Source: Magnetococcales bacterium (GTDB taxonomy: Bacteria > Pseudomonadota > Magnetococcia > Magnetococcales > UBA8363). Taken from it: 64,000 nucleotides of DNA. The notes beneath the pieces are model-generated. The model saw only the letters and a program-made list of their open reading frames with translations, did no database searches and was not told where the DNA came from. This document shows positions 15,967 through 47,487 of this stretch, one piece after another; within the stretch, counting starts at the first letter, position 1, and each line of letters starts with the position of its first letter. The position numbers and the translations under genes are program-made. The stretch covers positions 110,138-174,137 of the forward strand of contig PEAK01000001.1 of assembly GCA_002753515.1 (NCBI GenBank), read 5' to 3'.

Positions 15967-16716
15967 GGGCCGGTTCCTCTCTCGACCTGGACCCCAGTAC
16001 GGTAGGCACGGACGCTCGGCCACCCCCTGGAGGGCCAAGTTTATTTTTATTTAAACCGTCAGATCATGCCGCTTTTGTGAGTCTGTTCGCCAAGGACCAT
16101 TTAAGGATAATCGGGTTGTTCAAGTCAAGACATTTTTTTTCCAAAATAAAAATCAACCAATTTAAGTCGAAGTTGGTTGATTGATTCGATGGTTGGTTGA
16201 TTTTTTGTTGGATATTGCAGGATGATTGACTGCGCGTGTTTGCAATAAGTAATTATAAATCAATATTCTATGAAAATATTGTTTGTGTTGGAATTCGATA
16301 ATACAGAGTTGATTTTGTTCTCATGTTTCATTGCGGAATGGACGATAGAACCCTCAGGACGCCATGACCGCCAAAGTTTGTTCTACCGCCAAAGAGTGTA
16401 TTTTTACGTATTTCTGCCCTTGCCCGCTCCATGGAAAACGACATGGAAGGGTGGTGATTGCTGATGCCTTTGCTAAGTGGAGGATTGCTATCGAATTGAC
16501 CTGCTACCAACCTTTCAGGTTTCTTTGCCTCGCTTTAGGAGGAGAAGACACCGTGATGCGCCCGCTGTTGGAACCGGATGCCAACTGCGGGCGCATGGTG
16601 CTGACGTGTAGATGGACGTAATACCCGAATAGACTCATGGATCCCGATAATTGGCGCGGGTTATGCATAACCTTGTTGGTCGGTTTGTTCCGTTCCGGTC
16701 GGTTAAGGAAGATCCT

Positions 16717-41465: not shown

Positions 41466-44400
41466 ATGTTTTCGCCCCGTCGCGACAAAATCAGATTATT
41501 GGATGAAGAATTGTTTCACAATCTGACCTCGTTTTCCGAACTTGAGGCCAGAATTTTCAGTTTGGATGATCCTGAACGGCGGAAAAGTGCTTTTGCCATG
41601 TTTGCCGAAGGTTATTTGGCCTTGCGTTCCATGCCAAGGAGCGCGGAAATATTGCCAACCCATCGGTTGCATGAAAATCATTATCATAACCTCTGCATTC
41701 CCAAGACCTTGACCGGGGTTGATGGGCTTTTGTTCATGGCCGAGAGTGGTTGTCATCCCTACCATCTCCTGTTGCATGATCCACGATCGGAAGTGTCTGC
41801 GGAAACAATGGCCCCGTTTGCGCGTCTTTTGGAGCAAAGCCATTGGCCCCTGCTGTTTACCAATCTGCGCCAACTTCCCATGCAATGGTTGGAACGTGAA
41901 GGTTTCCAACACATTTCCGGAAACCAACTGGATGGATTAACCATTTCATGGTTTTCCTATTTTTTGCGTTGGTTGCAAAGTGGTACGCCATCCCGGCGCC
42001 CCACCTTGCCATCCGAACCCATGGGCGAAATGATGCAACGCGTTCGCGCAATGGCCCCGGGTGTGGCCACGGTAACCTTACCGGATGGACCCATTCAGGA
42101 TGAGTGGTTGTTTCACTTGGCGGTGAGCCCTGGACCCAAACGAATGACCTTGATCTTGACCCCGGGGGCGGGCCGCATCCTCGATCTGTTGCACCACTGG
42201 CGCAGACTGACGCCTCCAGTCCCATTATCATGCCTTTGGGTTGTTTCGGGAAAGGAATGGGATAAAAGTGAAAATCTTCTTCCCGGGGAGTTGGATTTTC
42301 TTCGGGTCCAGGATGTTGCAGGCATCCGTCACTTTTTGACCAGTCGTGACGGCAATCCCAGGATTCTCTGGGCGACTTTTGCCGCTATTCCCATGTTGAA
42401 AAAGGCACAATTGGGATTATCCCCCTTTGAGCTGACAGTGGTACTCGACAGTCATGTGCTGGCCCAACAGAGCAAATTGTATGAAACACTTTTGGCGCAG
42501 GAATTTCCCGTATCGCGGTTGCGCCTGCATGTGACCTCATTGCCACGCTGCACGACCCCATTTAAAAAAAATCGCCAGGAGCAGCCCGTTACCCTGTTCG
42601 CCATGGAAGACGATCAGCGGTTTGGTATTCCCGTTCGCTTCAGCATTGCGCCGAAACTCCGCGAATCCTTTGCGGGACGGGATTGGAAATTGGTTGTGGT
42701 ACCTGTCCAAAGCGACATGTTGCATCATCCAGAAACCTGTGTGGTCCATGCCTTGTCGCGTTCTCTCACAATTCATCCCAACATCCATCATGTTCATATT
42801 CCGTTGGAATGGAATGTTTCCGATACGGTTTCGGTTTCGGGCATTGGGGAGTTCGTTACGAGAACCAGTAATACAGCATGGGATGTCCTGACCTGGTCGA
42901 AAGAGGTGCGCCATTTTTCCCGGTTGGATCGGGCACTCCTGCGTATTGCTTCAATTCCTGGCCATGTTCGCCATCTGGCAACGTGCGATTTGGCTTTGTT
43001 ATCGTTTGATCCCGGTCAGGTCACTGCCTCGATTTACGAACGTCTGAGCGCCATCATGCGTCCCCATGCGGAGACAAGAACGGGGATTGCCGCTTCCTTG
43101 GTGGTGATTGATCCCATGTTTGCAGATGCCGAATCTTCCATGCGTCCCGACCTCGCTGCCCTTTGTCTGGTGGTGCAAGCGTTGCGTGACATGGATCCCG
43201 AGTTTGATCAGGCATTTTTTGAGGCGCGCCGGCATCGAGGTCGTACCGGTTCGTTCAACCTGGAACCCTTGCGGCGTTGGTTGCACGTTGCCGACCCCGG
43301 CACCAATGACGGTGCGAACACATTATTGGAATGGTTGTTAACCACCCTGACTTCTCCATGGGATCACTATTTGGGAGAACTCATGCGCTTCCATGAACAA
43401 TGGGGTTCTGCCGAGGTTGCGGAAGCGGGGGATGAGCATTCCCAACTTGCGGCTTGGGTGGAAGTGCAACGCCGGGCGCGGGTCAAAGGCTGGCTGACTC
43501 GGGAACACATCACGCAACTGGATGCGTTGGGATTTGTCTGGGATCCGAAAAAATTGGCCTGGGAACGCATGCTGGCGGCGTTGAAAATCTTTCAGGCTCG
43601 TCATCGGCATTGCAATGTCCCTGATCCCTATCCCGAAGTGGATACGTTGCCCTTGTGGGTCAAGCAACAGCGCCGGGATCTCCTTCAGGGACGCTTGCTC
43701 CCAGCTCAGATGGAACAATTGGATGCCCTGGGATTCATTTGGGATCTGGAGGCCTGGGAATGGGAACAGTGTTATACCCGATTGCTCCGATTGAAACCTG
43801 TGACCGACCCTGCCAGGATCACCGTGCCATGTCACCAGGATCCTGAGTTGGGGGAATGGGCTGATCGTCAGCGTCAGTTATGGCAAAAACAACGTTTGGA
43901 TGAAAGTCGACGCCAGCGCCTGGAGGCCGTTGGTTTTGTTTGGGATCTGGAGGCGACCGAATGGCAAGAGCGATTTCAACAATTCCGGATGATCGTGGTA
44001 ACGTTGGGTCGATGGCCGGGCATTGATCATCCGCTTTTGGATGAATTGCGTTCATGGCTGGAAGAGCAGCGACAATTAAGGGCTAAAAATCGCTTGCATC
44101 CCACCCGTTGTAATCGACTCAATGCATTGGGTTTCATCTGGTCAACACGACAAGAACAGTGGCAACGGTTTTTTGATCGCTTTGTCTCTTTCAAACGGCT
44201 CCACGGCCATGGCCTCGTTCCTGAGCGGTATTCCGAGGATCCGGAGCTCTCTTCCTGGGTCCAGGATCAACGGAGGGACTATCGGCGTGGGGTCATGGTG
44301 GAAGAGATCCATGCTCGATTGGCCATGGTGGGCTTCGTTTTTGATCCACAAGCCTATCATTGGGACAGGATGCTGGCTCTCTTTGAACGTTACCAACGTC

Positions 44401-45569
44401 ACCACGGTGATGATGATCCCGTGGCTGTGAATCCGCAGTTCGCCCCACTGAAAGATTGGATGGCCAGTCAACGGCGCATGCAGATGTCGGGTCGATTGCC
44501 GGAAATAGAGAGGGACAAACTGACCCGGTTGGGTTTTGTTTGGGATCCAGCGGCCAAACAGGAACAAACAATGCTCCGCGCCTTGCGCCGGTTCATGGAA
44601 CAATACGGTCATTGTAACATTCCTGCCGATTTCAACCACCCCCCCACCTTGTCGAGCTGGGTCCGAAAACTGCGGACCCGCAGGATAACGGGCGGATTGT
44701 CCCAGGAATTGATGGACCATCTTGACCGGATGGGGTTCATCTGGGACGCAGGGGAGGCCGAATGGCAGGAAATGTTCCATGCCCTGAAGCAATTCAATCA
44801 GGAACGCCTCCATTGTATTGTCCCCGATCCCTACCCGGTTCATCCCAGACTGCCGGCTTGGGTCAAAAATATTCGTAAAATTTATAAAAACAATGCCTTG
44901 GATAAGAAAAAAACGGAAAGCCTCAACCAATTGGAGTTCGTTTGGGACGAAAAGGCCGTTTTTTGGGAGGAAATGTTTGTCGCCCTGGCGGCGTATCACG
45001 ATCGATTTGGACACAGTTTGGTGCCGGAAAATGATAGCCAACATGCGCGATTGGCCTGGTGGGTTGCGGCGCAGCGTAAGGCCAGGATCGGTGGGCAGTT
45101 GGATGAAAAACAAATCCAACGCTTGGATCGGCTCCATTTCGTCTGGGACATCCATAGTGCCCAATGGTTGGAAATGTACCGGGAATTGTTCTTTTTCCAC
45201 CAACGTCACGGCCATTGCCTGATCAAAAATGATTCCCCACATCACACCCGCTTGAATGATTGGTGTGCCATTCAGCGCAAGGCCAGAATGATGGGAAATC
45301 TTTCCGAGGAAAAACAGGCACGTCTCAACACTTTGGGGTTCATTTGGGATGCCAGGGAGATGGTCGCGGCCGAAATGCTGATGTACCTGGAACAGTATAA
45401 GGAACGTTTTGGTCATTGTAATGTTCCGGCACAGTGGCCAGAAAATCCTCAATTGGGATTATGGCTACAGTTCCAGCGCCAGTCCTTTCAGAAAGGTCAA
45501 CTGGATCCGGAACGGCGGACCAAATTGGAAGAGATGGGAATCCTTTGGGATGAAGGAGATAAACGGTGA
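41466..45569 (+). CDS. Helicase-shaped protein lacking a P-loop, with 11 C-terminal HA (helicase-associated domain) repeats
   Basis: 1367-aa intact ORF starting 15 nt after the aldolase/SDR stop. The N-terminus resembles an Mrr-like module. Motif-I/II/III-like strings are degenerate (TPGAGRI, VVLDSH, VTSLPR). There is no GK[ST] anywhere in the protein. The C-terminal 736 aa are HA-type repeats. Confidence 0.7.
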   Translation: MFSPRRDKIRLLDEELFHNLTSFSELEARIFSLDDPERRKSAFAMFAEGYLALRSMPRSAEILPTHRLHENHYHNLCIPKTLTGVDGLLFMAESGCHPYHLLLHDPRSEVSAETMAPFARLLEQSHWPLLFTNLRQLPMQWLEREGFQHISGNQLDGLTISWFSYFLRWLQSGTPSRRPTLPSEPMGEMMQRVRAMAPGVATVTLPDGPIQDEWLFHLAVSPGPKRMTLILTPGAGRILDLLHHWRRLTPPVPLSCLWVVSGKEWDKSENLLPGELDFLRVQDVAGIRHFLTSRDGNPRILWATFAAIPMLKKAQLGLSPFELTVVLDSHVLAQQSKLYETLLAQEFPVSRLRLHVTSLPRCTTPFKKNRQEQPVTLFAMEDDQRFGIPVRFSIAPKLRESFAGRDWKLVVVPVQSDMLHHPETCVVHALSRSLTIHPNIHHVHIPLEWNVSDTVSVSGIGEFVTRTSNTAWDVLTWSKEVRHFSRLDRALLRIASIPGHVRHLATCDLALLSFDPGQVTASIYERLSAIMRPHAETRTGIAASLVVIDPMFADAESSMRPDLAALCLVVQALRDMDPEFDQAFFEARRHRGRTGSFNLEPLRRWLHVADPGTNDGANTLLEWLLTTLTSPWDHYLGELMRFHEQWGSAEVAEAGDEHSQLAAWVEVQRRARVKGWLTREHITQLDALGFVWDPKKLAWERMLAALKIFQARHRHCNVPDPYPEVDTLPLWVKQQRRDLLQGRLLPAQMEQLDALGFIWDLEAWEWEQCYTRLLRLKPVTDPARITVPCHQDPELGEWADRQRQLWQKQRLDESRRQRLEAVGFVWDLEATEWQERFQQFRMIVVTLGRWPGIDHPLLDELRSWLEEQRQLRAKNRLHPTRCNRLNALGFIWSTRQEQWQRFFDRFVSFKRLHGHGLVPERYSEDPELSSWVQDQRRDYRRGVMVEEIHARLAMVGFVFDPQAYHWDRMLALFERYQRHHGDDDPVAVNPQFAPLKDWMASQRRMQMSGRLPEIERDKLTRLGFVWDPAAKQEQTMLRALRRFMEQYGHCNIPADFNHPPTLSSWVRKLRTRRITGGLSQELMDHLDRMGFIWDAGEAEWQEMFHALKQFNQERLHCIVPDPYPVHPRLPAWVKNIRKIYKNNALDKKKTESLNQLEFVWDEKAVFWEEMFVALAAYHDRFGHSLVPENDSQHARLAWWVAAQRKARIGGQLDEKQIQRLDRLHFVWDIHSAQWLEMYRELFFFHQRHGHCLIKNDSPHHTRLNDWCAIQRKARMMGNLSEEKQARLNTLGFIWDAREMVAAEMLMYLEQYKERFGHCNVPAQWPENPQLGLWLQFQRQSFQKGQLDPERRTKLEEMGILWDEGDKR
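43359..45566 (+). repeat. Tandem array of 11 diverged ~66-aa (~200-bp) HA-domain coding repeats
   Basis: Each unit follows W..(M/F)...L..(F/Y)....GH..VP.......L..WV..QR.....G.L.......L..LGF.W. Examples: WERMLAALKIFQARHRHCNVP...LPLWVKQQRRDLLQGRL...LDALGFIWD, and the last unit FGHCNVP...LGLWLQFQRQSFQKGQL...LEEMGILWD. Confidence 0.8.
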
Positions 45570-46606
45570 AACAGGTGGAACCAATCTGTGGCCGGGTAAC
45601 TGATCAGACCACAATAATCTCGATGATTCTTCATGCGTGTGATGAAACCCAACAAATTCGTCTGCACATGGATCAACAATTCTTAGAATATATAACCCAT
45701 TTTAAAACTGGCCCTGAACCAGATAAATTTTTATATCTCTATATCGGTGGTTTGGTGCCACCGGTCGGTAATATTAAAATTCGTAAAAGCCATGTTATTG
45801 AAATAACTTTCCAGACTAATACTCGCGTTGTGGAAACCAAGGTGCGCTTCCTGCGAGCTGTGACCAACGAGTTGTTTCGTTTATCCTTTCCCAAGTATGT
45901 GAAAATAATGGCGCAAAAACGTTCAGCAATCCGGGTTGCGCCCGTGGCCGCCATGAAAATTTCACTTGGTATCATTCGGCCCGATGGATTGGAATTGCCT
46001 GCCCAAATAGTCGATATCAGTGCCGAAGGTTTGTCATTCCTCTTTGAGAAATCAGAGTACTACCTCCCCAAGGAAGCATCCATTCAGATCGTGCTATCAT
46101 GGGGGGGTGGATGCCATCACACAATAGTGGATGCCCAGGTTGTTGGTCATGTGACGCGGGATTTGGTGGAAGGACATCGTGCCAAATTTGTTTTCTCTAC
46201 AGTCGAGCAATCCATGCGGATCGGGGAATTGGTTGCCAGTATTCAATGCGATATCCTGCAACACCGCGTCCAGGTATCCAGTGAGGAAAAGATCAAAACC
46301 TGGGAGGTGAAACCATTGGCAAAAGTGGATATTCCGACATCAAGCCTTGAGGATTGGCATGATCGATATTACAGCCAATGGATGGATAAGTCTTATTTTG
46401 TCGCATGGACTGGAAACATCCTGGGTATGTGCGCGGGGTTCTTGATTGCCTTGAATCTTTATATTCATTGGGCGTATCCCCTTTTAATCGTGGCCTCATT
46501 GGTGATGGGAGTGGGATTATCAGCGCGTCATCGCTCGCTTCCCCTATTGCTTATTGGTTTCATCCTGTTATTAGGCGTCATTGGAACCTTGCGTGTGTGG
46601 TGGTAA
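45566..46606 (+). CDS. PilZ-domain protein with about 3 C-terminal transmembrane helices
   Basis: GTG 45566 overlaps the upstream stop (GTGA) and is preceded by AAGGAG at a 7-nt spacing. PilZ motifs: RSAIR (45920-45934) and DISAEG (46013-46030). C-terminal TM segments: ILGMCAGFLIALNLYIHW, LLIVASLVMGVGL, LLLIGFILLLGVIGTL. Confidence 0.75.
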   Translation: MKQVEPICGRVTDQTTIISMILHACDETQQIRLHMDQQFLEYITHFKTGPEPDKFLYLYIGGLVPPVGNIKIRKSHVIEITFQTNTRVVETKVRFLRAVTNELFRLSFPKYVKIMAQKRSAIRVAPVAAMKISLGIIRPDGLELPAQIVDISAEGLSFLFEKSEYYLPKEASIQIVLSWGGGCHHTIVDAQVVGHVTRDLVEGHRAKFVFSTVEQSMRIGELVASIQCDILQHRVQVSSEEKIKTWEVKPLAKVDIPTSSLEDWHDRYYSQWMDKSYFVAWTGNILGMCAGFLIALNLYIHWAYPLLIVASLVMGVGLSARHRSLPLLLIGFILLLGVIGTLRVWW

Positions 46607-46740
46607 TCCGTGCTGCTCACAGGATGCGAATTGCAACATGTTTGTATCTTTGGTTGGCTCGTCATCAGTGGTATGATTCGGCCCATGGAATCGTTTGATT
46701 GATCCTGCCTTGTTGACCCTTACTGCTGACGGAGAGTCGG

Positions 46741-47487
46741 ATGACCCAGAAACATGTTCTTGTTACCGGTGGTATTGGTGGTATTGGTACCGCTATCGTC
46801 AAATATTTTGCACGGGATGGCTACAAAACCGCCGCAACCTATGCCCCCTTTGAAAGGGAAAAAGTCAAACCATGGCTGGAGATGATTGAAAAGGAGGTGT
46901 TGGAAGTCCATTTGTTTGAAGTGGATGTTGCCGATTTTGAATCCTGTCACGCCCTGTCCCACAAGGTGGCGGCAGAATTTGGCGCTGTGGATGTATTGGT
47001 CAATTGCGCCGGTATCATCCGCGATTCGGTGTTCAAAAAAATGCCCTTCGAAAACTGGGATCAGGTGATGAAAGTTAACCTGTATAGCATTTTTAACGTG
47101 ACTCGGCATTTCTTTGAAGCCATGCTGATTCGCAAATGGGGACGGGTGATCAACATCACCTCAGTCAATGGTCAAAAGGGTCAGTTTGGCCAAGCCAACT
47201 ATTCGGCAACCAAAGCGGGTGCCCACGGTCTGACCATGGCTTTGGCACAGGAAGGGGCCAAACATGGTGTTACCGTCAACTCCGTCGCTCCGGGGTATAC
47301 AGCTACGGAAATGATGCTTCAGGTCCCCGAGGCTGTTTTGGACGATATCAAAAAACATATTCCAATGGGTCGATTGGCCAAGCCTGAGGAAATTGCCGCC
47401 GCAGTGTTGTTCCTGGCTTCTGAAGATGCCGCATTCATAACCGGTGTGAATCTGGATGTTAACGGCGGTCAGTGGATGCACCATTGA
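46741..47487 (+). CDS. phaB: Acetoacetyl-CoA reductase
   Basis: 248 aa, collinear with Cupriavidus PhaB by eye: VTGGIGGIGTAI, VLVNCAGIIRDSVFKKM, INITSVNGQKGQFGQANYSATKAGAHGLTMALAQE, VNSVAPGY. Confidence 0.88.
   Translation: MTQKHVLVTGGIGGIGTAIVKYFARDGYKTAATYAPFEREKVKPWLEMIEKEVLEVHLFEVDVADFESCHALSHKVAAEFGAVDVLVNCAGIIRDSVFKKMPFENWDQVMKVNLYSIFNVTRHFFEAMLIRKWGRVINITSVNGQKGQFGQANYSATKAGAHGLTMALAQEGAKHGVTVNSVAPGYTATEMMLQVPEAVLDDIKKHIPMGRLAKPEEIAAAVLFLASEDAAFITGVNLDVNGGQWMHH

Follow-up and report, generated by a model that had tools for sequence, protein, structure and literature searches.

A predicted YcgR-type PilZ protein with a C-terminal three-helix membrane anchor, encoded directly behind an HA-repeat gene in a Magnetococcales lineage

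The gene considered here encodes a PilZ-type protein with a hydrophobic C-terminal tail in a Magnetococcales bacterium (assembly GCA_002753515.1, genome G000), and it lies in a stretch of 64,000 nucleotides of contig PEAK01000001.1 (positions 110,138 to 174,137, forward strand) that we call the window and in which all coordinates are given. The open reading frame (ORF) occupies 45566..46606 on the forward strand, begins with GTG and encodes 346 amino acids; we refer to it as PilZ-3TM, for its PilZ domain and three predicted transmembrane (TM) helices. Upstream is an HA-repeat gene (41466..45569, forward strand), whose product of 1367 amino acids consists of an N-terminal region of about 640 residues and 11 HA repeats (Pfam HA, PF03457, E 5.5e-137, in 11 stretches). 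Downstream, beyond an intergenic region at 46607..46740, is a short-chain dehydrogenase (SDR) gene (46741..47487, forward strand, 248 amino acids; Pfam adh_short, E 2.3e-58). The other neighbours in the window are hemCD, a gene for an Hpt/OmpR-type regulator, an OPX gene, an aldolase/SDR gene and ATP synthase genes. An initial annotation of the window had singled out PilZ-3TM and proposed several functions for it; its observations on the sequence are confirmed by our analysis, and its interpretation is partly supported.

The PilZ-3TM gene is physically interlocked with the HA gene. Its GTG codon (45566-45568) shares bases with the TGA (45567-45569) that ends the HA ORF, giving a GTGA overlap at 45566..45569, and a Shine-Dalgarno sequence, AAGGAG, lies within the HA coding sequence at 45553..45558 with a spacer of 7 nucleotides to the GTG; these features, already pointed out in the initial annotation, can be read directly from the sequence. 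An internal ATG at 45623 had been entertained as the alternative start. We conclude that translation begins at 45566, because the orthologue in a sister genome (G001) retains an identical GTGA overlap and a Shine-Dalgarno sequence at the matching place (there GAGGGAG), because alignment with relatives of the protein begins at about residue 10, and because the only other upstream candidate, a GTG at codon 4, is GGG in the orthologue. One such relative, P0007, has its N-terminus two residues ahead of a conserved VTD (positions 11-13), and the ATG at 45623 corresponds to M20, so that a start there would cut a helix (residues 14-26) that follows a strand (residues 9-11) in the AlphaFold model. The position of the start thus suits translational coupling with the HA gene, an arrangement kept in the sole orthologue found, and coupling may well operate. 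A scan of 44800-47000 for promoters and terminators gave counts not above the shuffled expectation and none between the HA and PilZ-3TM genes; an Rfam scan of 45000-47000 returned no match.

The first 240 residues carry the signature of a cyclic di-GMP (c-di-GMP) receptor. Both PilZ motifs named in the initial annotation are present, RxxxR as R119-S-A-I-R123 (45920..45934) and [D/N]xSxxG as D150-I-S-A-E-G155 (46013..46030). In a family alignment of 16 sequences (A1), R119, R123, D150 and G155 do not vary; S152 and G155 are invariant in a 7-row alignment (A4), in which D150 is not. The Pfam PilZ model (PF07238) matches residues 117-214 with 19.1 bits (E 0.0017; 21.5 bits in a scan of the genome), and 14 of 16 family members match it at E <=0.1, the best at 8.4e-10. 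When a profile of the family was compared with sequences from the PDB, the top match was E. coli YcgR, weakly (E 0.026), with an alignment that pairs both motifs (QRRRYFR with QkRsavR, and DLSLGG with DiSagG); the single window protein had no match among PDB sequences using phmmer.

Structure prediction extends this resemblance beyond the PilZ domain. An AlphaFold2 model, built from a 7-row alignment, places an N-terminal beta-domain at residues 9-116, a PilZ barrel at 132-209, predicted to be six-stranded (pLDDT 77-87 over 131-210), a long helix at 213-240 and a low-confidence stretch at 233-268. When the model was compared with the PDB by Foldseek, the best matches were all two-domain c-di-GMP receptors of the YcgR family, aligned over about 233 columns, in a range of roughly 229-260, with E-values from 2e-12 to 1e-6 and at 10-16% sequence identity. 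They are led by PP4397 (3kyf, E 2e-12) and YcgR (5y6f, E 1.6e-11), followed by MrkH, VCA0042/PlzD, MotI/DgrA and PlzA; the two-domain structures aligned were 3kyf, 5y6f, 5kgo, 2rde, 5vx6 and 7mie, and the isolated YcgR-N structure 5y6h was aligned too. Isolated domains come next (PilZ of Alg44, BcsA, YcgR and PA0012, and YcgR-N), with target TM-scores of 0.70-0.78. Because Foldseek aligns both domains, and because the family profile and the motifs agree, residues 1-240 are modelled as a complete YcgR-type receptor, with a PilZN-like domain at residues 1-116 (45566..45913; supported also by invariant columns) and the PilZ barrel with its C-terminal helix at residues 117-240 (45914..46285), rather than as a lone PilZ domain. 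The initial annotation, which described a PilZ-type receptor with a minimal three-TM module, was right as far as it went and had missed the first of these domains.

The PilZN-like domain has a feature of its own. The Pfam PilZN model does not match the window protein and matches just one of 16 relatives (E 0.0047), and a P-x-x-G-N motif (P65..G68-N69, PPVGN) is invariant across the family in A1. We do not recognise this motif from described PilZN families, and on the alignment it appears to be a family-specific motif of the N-terminal domain. Its surroundings (residues 63-73, 45752-45784) have the consensus LDPPIGNIKIR and are predicted to form a short helix.

Behind the receptor part, residues 241-261 (46286..46348) form a putative flexible tether inside the low-confidence stretch (pLDDT <50), and residues 262-345 (46349..46600) a juxtamembrane helix and three TM helices. 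The hydropathy profile is hydrophobic without a break from about residue 274 as far as 346, and the AlphaFold model has three C-terminal helices (262-295, 300-322 and 325-345), which would give TM spans at approximately 275-297, 300-322 and 325-345. The loops between them comprise 2-4 residues and the C-terminal tail extends one residue past TM3; the initial claim of about three C-terminal TM helices, with almost nothing outside the membrane, therefore holds. The loop that joins TM2 to TM3, RHR (321-323), carries positive charge and is predicted to face the cytoplasm. No second copy of this tail was found in the same genome by tblastn.

This topology bears on one function proposed in the initial annotation, that PilZ-3TM is an Alg44-like c-di-GMP gate for the neighbouring export protein; we take this to be the giant, Wza-like OPX exporter, whose gene lies 6.4 kb upstream. 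The two genes are on the same strand, the OPX gene has Poly_export and SLBB domains, and PilZ-TM proteins such as Alg44, the alginate co-polymerase of P. aeruginosa, are known to activate polysaccharide secretion; Alg44 likewise has a cytoplasmic PilZ followed by a membrane span, and its PilZ domain aligns with a target TM-score of 0.71-0.75. However, Alg44 combines a single PilZ domain and a single TM helix with a large periplasmic MFP-like domain, and is encoded in a polysaccharide synthase operon, none of which is true of the window protein; a periplasmic MFP/HlyD-like domain is absent, the loops having so few residues, genes for a glycosyltransferase or polymerase are missing from the neighbourhood, and the block of OPX, aldolase/SDR, HA and SDR genes exists without PilZ-3TM in another genome of the genus (G002). 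We consider such a gate very improbable.

The closer comparison is with the YcgR family itself, that is, YcgR of E. coli, PP4397 (FlgZ-type; 2gjg in addition to 3kyf) of P. putida, VCA0042/PlzD of V. cholerae, MotI/DgrA of B. subtilis, MrkH of K. pneumoniae and PlzA of B. burgdorferi. A PilZN-like domain, a PilZ barrel and a C-terminal helix are common to these and the window protein, as is the placement of the motifs, with RxxxR at the domain junction and DxSxxG in the barrel. The window protein differs in lacking a Pfam PilZN match, in its invariant P-x-x-G-N and, above all, in that the proteins just named are all soluble whereas PilZ-3TM adds about 105 residues of predicted disordered tether and three TM helices. 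Membrane-anchored YcgR-like proteins have been described, but the anchor is described only as an N-terminal hydrophobic helix, in the TDE1318 type by Galperin and Chou, who surveyed PilZ-related domains (preprint 10.1101/814665), and likewise in the NpzN type of a study of YcgR proteins in Leptospirales (PMC11800159). The TDE1318 or YcgR-NpzN type resembles the window protein in that a YcgR-type receptor is fixed to the cytoplasmic membrane; however, the TDE1318 type, named for a protein of T. denticola, has a single N-terminal helix with a helical NpzN subdomain, while the anchor of the window protein is C-terminal, has three spans and follows a flexible linker. The lineages differ too, the N-terminally anchored type being found in spirochaetes, Aquificae and Fibrobacteres. 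In the literature searched we came across no account of a YcgR-type receptor with several membrane spans as an anchor at its C-terminus, an absence that applies to that literature only. The novelty of the window protein is consequently one of architecture, a C-terminal three-TM anchor on a known type of receptor.

How rare is this architecture? A phmmer search with the window protein of all 1.84 billion representative proteins gave 76 matches at E <=0.001, nearly all of them soluble proteins of approximately 245-290 amino acids that cover residues ~10-240. Only P0007 (345 amino acids, 36% identity) aligns from end to end, and a hydropathy scan of the matches found hydrophobic C-terminal tails in none but the query cluster, P0007 and P0016. 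The tail of P0007 is homologous to that of the window protein (30% identity over 84 residues, ungapped, E 1e-9); that of P0016 has no detectable homology to it (E 0.6). By sequence, then, the cluster of P0007 alone among these representatives appears to share the tail. In a tree of the soluble part, P0004, P0005 and P0007 form a clade (support 98/98) nested among soluble members of the family, and the placement of P0016 is weak, such that a single origin of tails is neither shown nor excluded. Other searches gave the following: a word-index search, run first with the protein alone and later with a profile of 16 sequences, recovered only the query, the orthologue at 80% identity, P0016 and P0022; a search of contigs with a 3-sequence alignment recovered the G001 orthologue alone; and a metagenome scan for [APG]L[DV]P[PR][IV]GNI[KR] identified four loci, each with a soluble relative. 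An exact-sequence look-up of the relative at L027 returned no record. The family has members in 37 of 41 Magnetococcales genomes searched, with up to eight matches per genome, and the window genome has one soluble paralogue, on contig C107; judged by these matches the family is mostly soluble and, in the genomes searched, met chiefly in Magnetococcales.

Where relatives of the window protein occur, they occupy signalling neighbourhoods. In G011 (L007) a relative directly follows a PAS-GGDEF gene, and the paralogue of the window genome (G000:C107:109100-112022) lies about 90 nucleotides ahead of an open frame with a GGDEF match, some 690 amino acids long, its other neighbour being an ORF of 289 amino acids. 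P0016 is surrounded by a gene combining metallo-beta-lactamase (MBL), cNMP-binding and hemerythrin domains, an HD-domain gene, a response regulator-HD_5 gene and a large PAS histidine kinase gene, and P0022 lies between a gene for an MBL-fold, Apyc1-like hydrolase and a response regulator gene.

Genes with an MBL fold that match the Anti-Pycsar Apyc1 or Lactamase_B models recur beside family relatives (Logan contigs L028 and L029; L012). P0022 is directly downstream of its MBL-fold gene and P0016 is divergent from its MBL/cNMP-binding/hemerythrin fusion gene. These neighbours may represent the pairing of a cyclic-nucleotide phosphodiesterase with a receptor.

The order of genes in related genomes suggests how PilZ-3TM came to lie behind the HA gene. 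The sister genome G001 (metagenome-assembled genome nWRX3bin12, JADGCN010000002.1) has the same layout, with OPX (1124 amino acids), aldolase/SDR (687), HA (1367), PilZ-3TM (346) and SDR (248) genes; its HA and PilZ-3TM proteins are 95.5% and 80% identical to those of the window. In three genomes of the same genus (G002, G003 and G006) the SDR gene comes straight after the HA gene. G002 (L021) has the complete OPX-aldolase/SDR-HA-SDR block without PilZ-3TM, and G003 (L022) has aldolase/SDR-HA-SDR without it, no OPX ORF being seen at that locus. In G007 an unrelated gene for an MNT-type nucleotidyltransferase (Polbeta/NTP_transf_2) comes after the HA stop, and synteny breaks beyond it; the contig of G005 ends after the HA gene. 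PilZ-3TM is a rare accessory gene, specific to its lineage and recently inserted between the conserved HA and SDR genes, and the region 3' of HA resembles a variable site for insertions. In the simplest history PilZ-3TM entered between HA and the control region of SDR, and this insertion created the C-terminal tail of the HA protein together with the GTGA overlap.

The nucleotidyltransferase gene of G007 (C12, 12587-13168; L019), taken as the long ORF, also overlaps the HA stop, by ATGA, though its true start is likely an internal methionine. Cytochrome c and NHL-repeat genes follow it in place of the SDR gene.

The initial annotation took the overlap to imply stoichiometric co-expression with the HA-repeat protein. 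PilZ-3TM might then be a dedicated partner of that protein, made in a fixed ratio to it by coupling, and either tethering it to the membrane or placing it under c-di-GMP control. Both the overlap and the strong Shine-Dalgarno sequence inside the HA coding sequence are indeed kept in the orthologue, no promoter-like or terminator-like site separates the genes, and P0007, the sole other protein with the same tail, is also encoded behind a gene of helicase type, in this case UvrD-like. Yet the HA protein has matches in 37 of 41 Magnetococcales genomes, while PilZ-3TM follows it in just two, at near-identical loci, and since the annotation itself had looked to recurrence in other genomes, where only G001 shares the pair with the window genome, a conserved functional pair is not supported. 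The pair is confined to one shallow lineage and is not conserved. The direct HA-SDR junction in G002, G003 and G006 points the same way, as does a difference in history, with a synonymous divergence (dS) between G000 and G001 of ~0.16 for HA and 0.7-0.9 for the receptor part of PilZ-3TM. The parallel with P0007 does not help, as its UvrD-type helicase neighbour has no similarity to the HA protein and is separated from P0007 by 87 nucleotides, and P0016 has no such neighbour; a recurrent pair of a helicase-like gene followed by a PilZ-3TM gene was considered and is unsupported. A dedicated partnership is accordingly unlikely in our estimate, and any coupling is a consequence of how the overlap wired the PilZ-3TM gene into the HA transcript, not of an old association with HA. 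The OPX, aldolase/SDR, HA and PilZ-TM genes should not be counted as a four-gene unit, and HA is without a conserved PilZ partner.

The composition of the PilZ-3TM gene and its divergence from the orthologue set it apart from its surroundings. Its GC content is 45.7% (4th percentile of equal-sized windows of the genome), whereas the genome as a whole has 53.3% and the HA gene 52.5%; the first 400 nucleotides have 42.5% (2.8th percentile), and the AT-rich 5' part noted in the initial annotation is evident in three consecutive 60-nucleotide lines of 32-37% GC at 45640-45819. Between G000 and G001, nucleotide identity in a sliding comparison is ~95% ahead of the start codon, drops there to ~80% and rises again near 46350, delimiting a hyper-diverged segment (45570..46350) that comprises the whole cytoplasmic receptor part; its edges fall at the start codon and at the onset of the juxtamembrane helix. 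Estimated by the Nei-Gojobori method, dS and the ratio of non-synonymous to synonymous divergence (dN/dS) are 0.90 and 0.14 for codons 2-116 and 0.69 and 0.19 for codons 117-240, but 0.28 and 0.33 for the linker (codons 241-273) and 0.22 and 0.28 for the TM part, compared with 0.119 and 0.18 for aldolase/SDR, 0.157 and 0.13 for HA, and 0.188 and 0.02 for SDR. PilZ-3TM as a whole has a dN/dS of 0.19 against its orthologue, and is therefore a real gene under constraint. Its receptor part is about five times more diverged than its surroundings, the protein's own membrane tail included, while purifying selection holds; because of this the gene is a mosaic, in which the receptor part has a history unlike that of its flanks. 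It looks as though the receptor part was replaced through recombination with a diverged allele, the alternative being alleles maintained over a long time; both G000 and G001 are metagenome-assembled, and strain mixtures could contribute to the divergence signal.

A rare gene of low GC content with a replaced sensor could belong to a conflict system, and the initial annotation had likened the architecture of PilZ-3TM to that of nucleotide-gated membrane effectors. The protein would then be gated by a cyclic dinucleotide and work like Cap15 or other TM effectors of CBASS-type systems, with binding of the ligand leading to oligomerisation of the TM helices and depolarisation as part of a defence or conflict system. 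Cap15, which has been reported to disrupt the inner membrane upon ligand binding (PMC10442399), shares with the window protein a cyclic-nucleotide-binding beta-barrel and a minimal TM module; further points for this reading are the patchy occurrence of the architecture, with two clusters bearing the tail among the 76 matches in 1.84 billion representatives, the signs of allele replacement in the sensor, and the variable spot itself, where G007 has its nucleotidyltransferase gene. Against this, Cap15 carries two TM segments at its N-terminus and its gene neighbours one for a CD-NTase, whereas the TM module of the window protein is C-terminal, reversing the domain order, its motifs are of PilZ type and it has no adjacent CD-NTase or dedicated cyclase, its neighbours being housekeeping genes. 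The 50 best Foldseek matches include no structure of Cap15, PADLOC assigns no families to the three TM-tailed proteins P0001, P0007 and P0016, and the relatives are in signalling rather than defence neighbourhoods. The genome has 43 GGDEF and 20 PilZ matches, so that c-di-GMP would be a standing messenger in it, and a lethal pore gated through canonical c-di-GMP motifs would fire constantly. An effector of this type is improbable.

A further reading would be a c-di-GMP-gated membrane-active module instead of a passive tethered receptor, in which closure of the receptor head acts through the tether on the three-helix bundle to alter permeability or an ion-conducting partner, and in which strains exchange the head as a cassette but retain the membrane module. 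We regard this as speculative and improbable too; if true, it would constitute a counterpart of the TM effectors of phage defence that answers to a housekeeping messenger.

The reading that we prefer, and believe to be probably correct, is that PilZ-3TM encodes a membrane-tethered, YcgR-type receptor or adaptor for c-di-GMP with a C-terminal three-helix anchor in the inner membrane, binding of c-di-GMP being predicted from the motifs and the modelled fold. We read the protein as a receptor or adaptor, not as an enzyme or pore. As in YcgR, PP4397 and MrkH, c-di-GMP would bind at the RxxxR/DxSxxG site at the domain junction and cause the two domains to close; a flexible tether, ending at about residue 261, would join the receptor to its anchor; and the ligand-bound receptor, fixed at the membrane, would act on a partner embedded in or close to the membrane. 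By analogy with YcgR, MotI and FlgZ, the flagellar stator or rotor would be a first guess for this target. YcgR-type receptors are a textbook route from c-di-GMP to the control of motility, and to our knowledge those characterised are all soluble; a C-terminal anchor of three spans would limit the places where the signal can act, and points to a target embedded in the membrane. The family may matter for the control of multi-motor flagellar bundles in magnetotactic cocci. A PilZ protein near the mamAB cluster in strains IT-1 and MC-1 was noted in the description of Magnetofaba australis, where flagellar control was speculated (PMC5088516).

Several observations weigh against this interpretation. 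Both PilZ scores fall below the Pfam gathering cut-off of 22.5 bits, and the AlphaFold model is of moderate quality (mean pLDDT 67.7, pTM 0.40), having only seven sequences behind it. The tail is consistent with an N-in, three-span, C-out topology, which was derived from hydropathy and the positive-inside rule alone. Neither the window gene nor the relatives' loci examined have flagellar or other membrane-complex genes nearby, and the combination of rarity, low GC content and mosaic divergence would be compatible with an accessory or conflict-type gene as well.

Two smaller observations concern the sequence around the gene. The region between PilZ-3TM and SDR is near-identical in G001, with no mismatch over 46650-46749, and the last ~80 nucleotides upstream of the SDR gene (…ATCA[A/G]TG[G/A]TATGATT…CCATG[G/A]AA…) are conserved throughout the genus, in genomes with the PilZ gene and in those that lack it (L021, L022, L030). 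These conserved positions contain a TATGATT box and CCATGGAA, and 46607-46740 is probably the SDR gene's own promoter, leader or control region. The lowest-GC stretch of the window is at 16001-16300, with 34-39% GC in 300-nucleotide windows against a mean of 52.6%.

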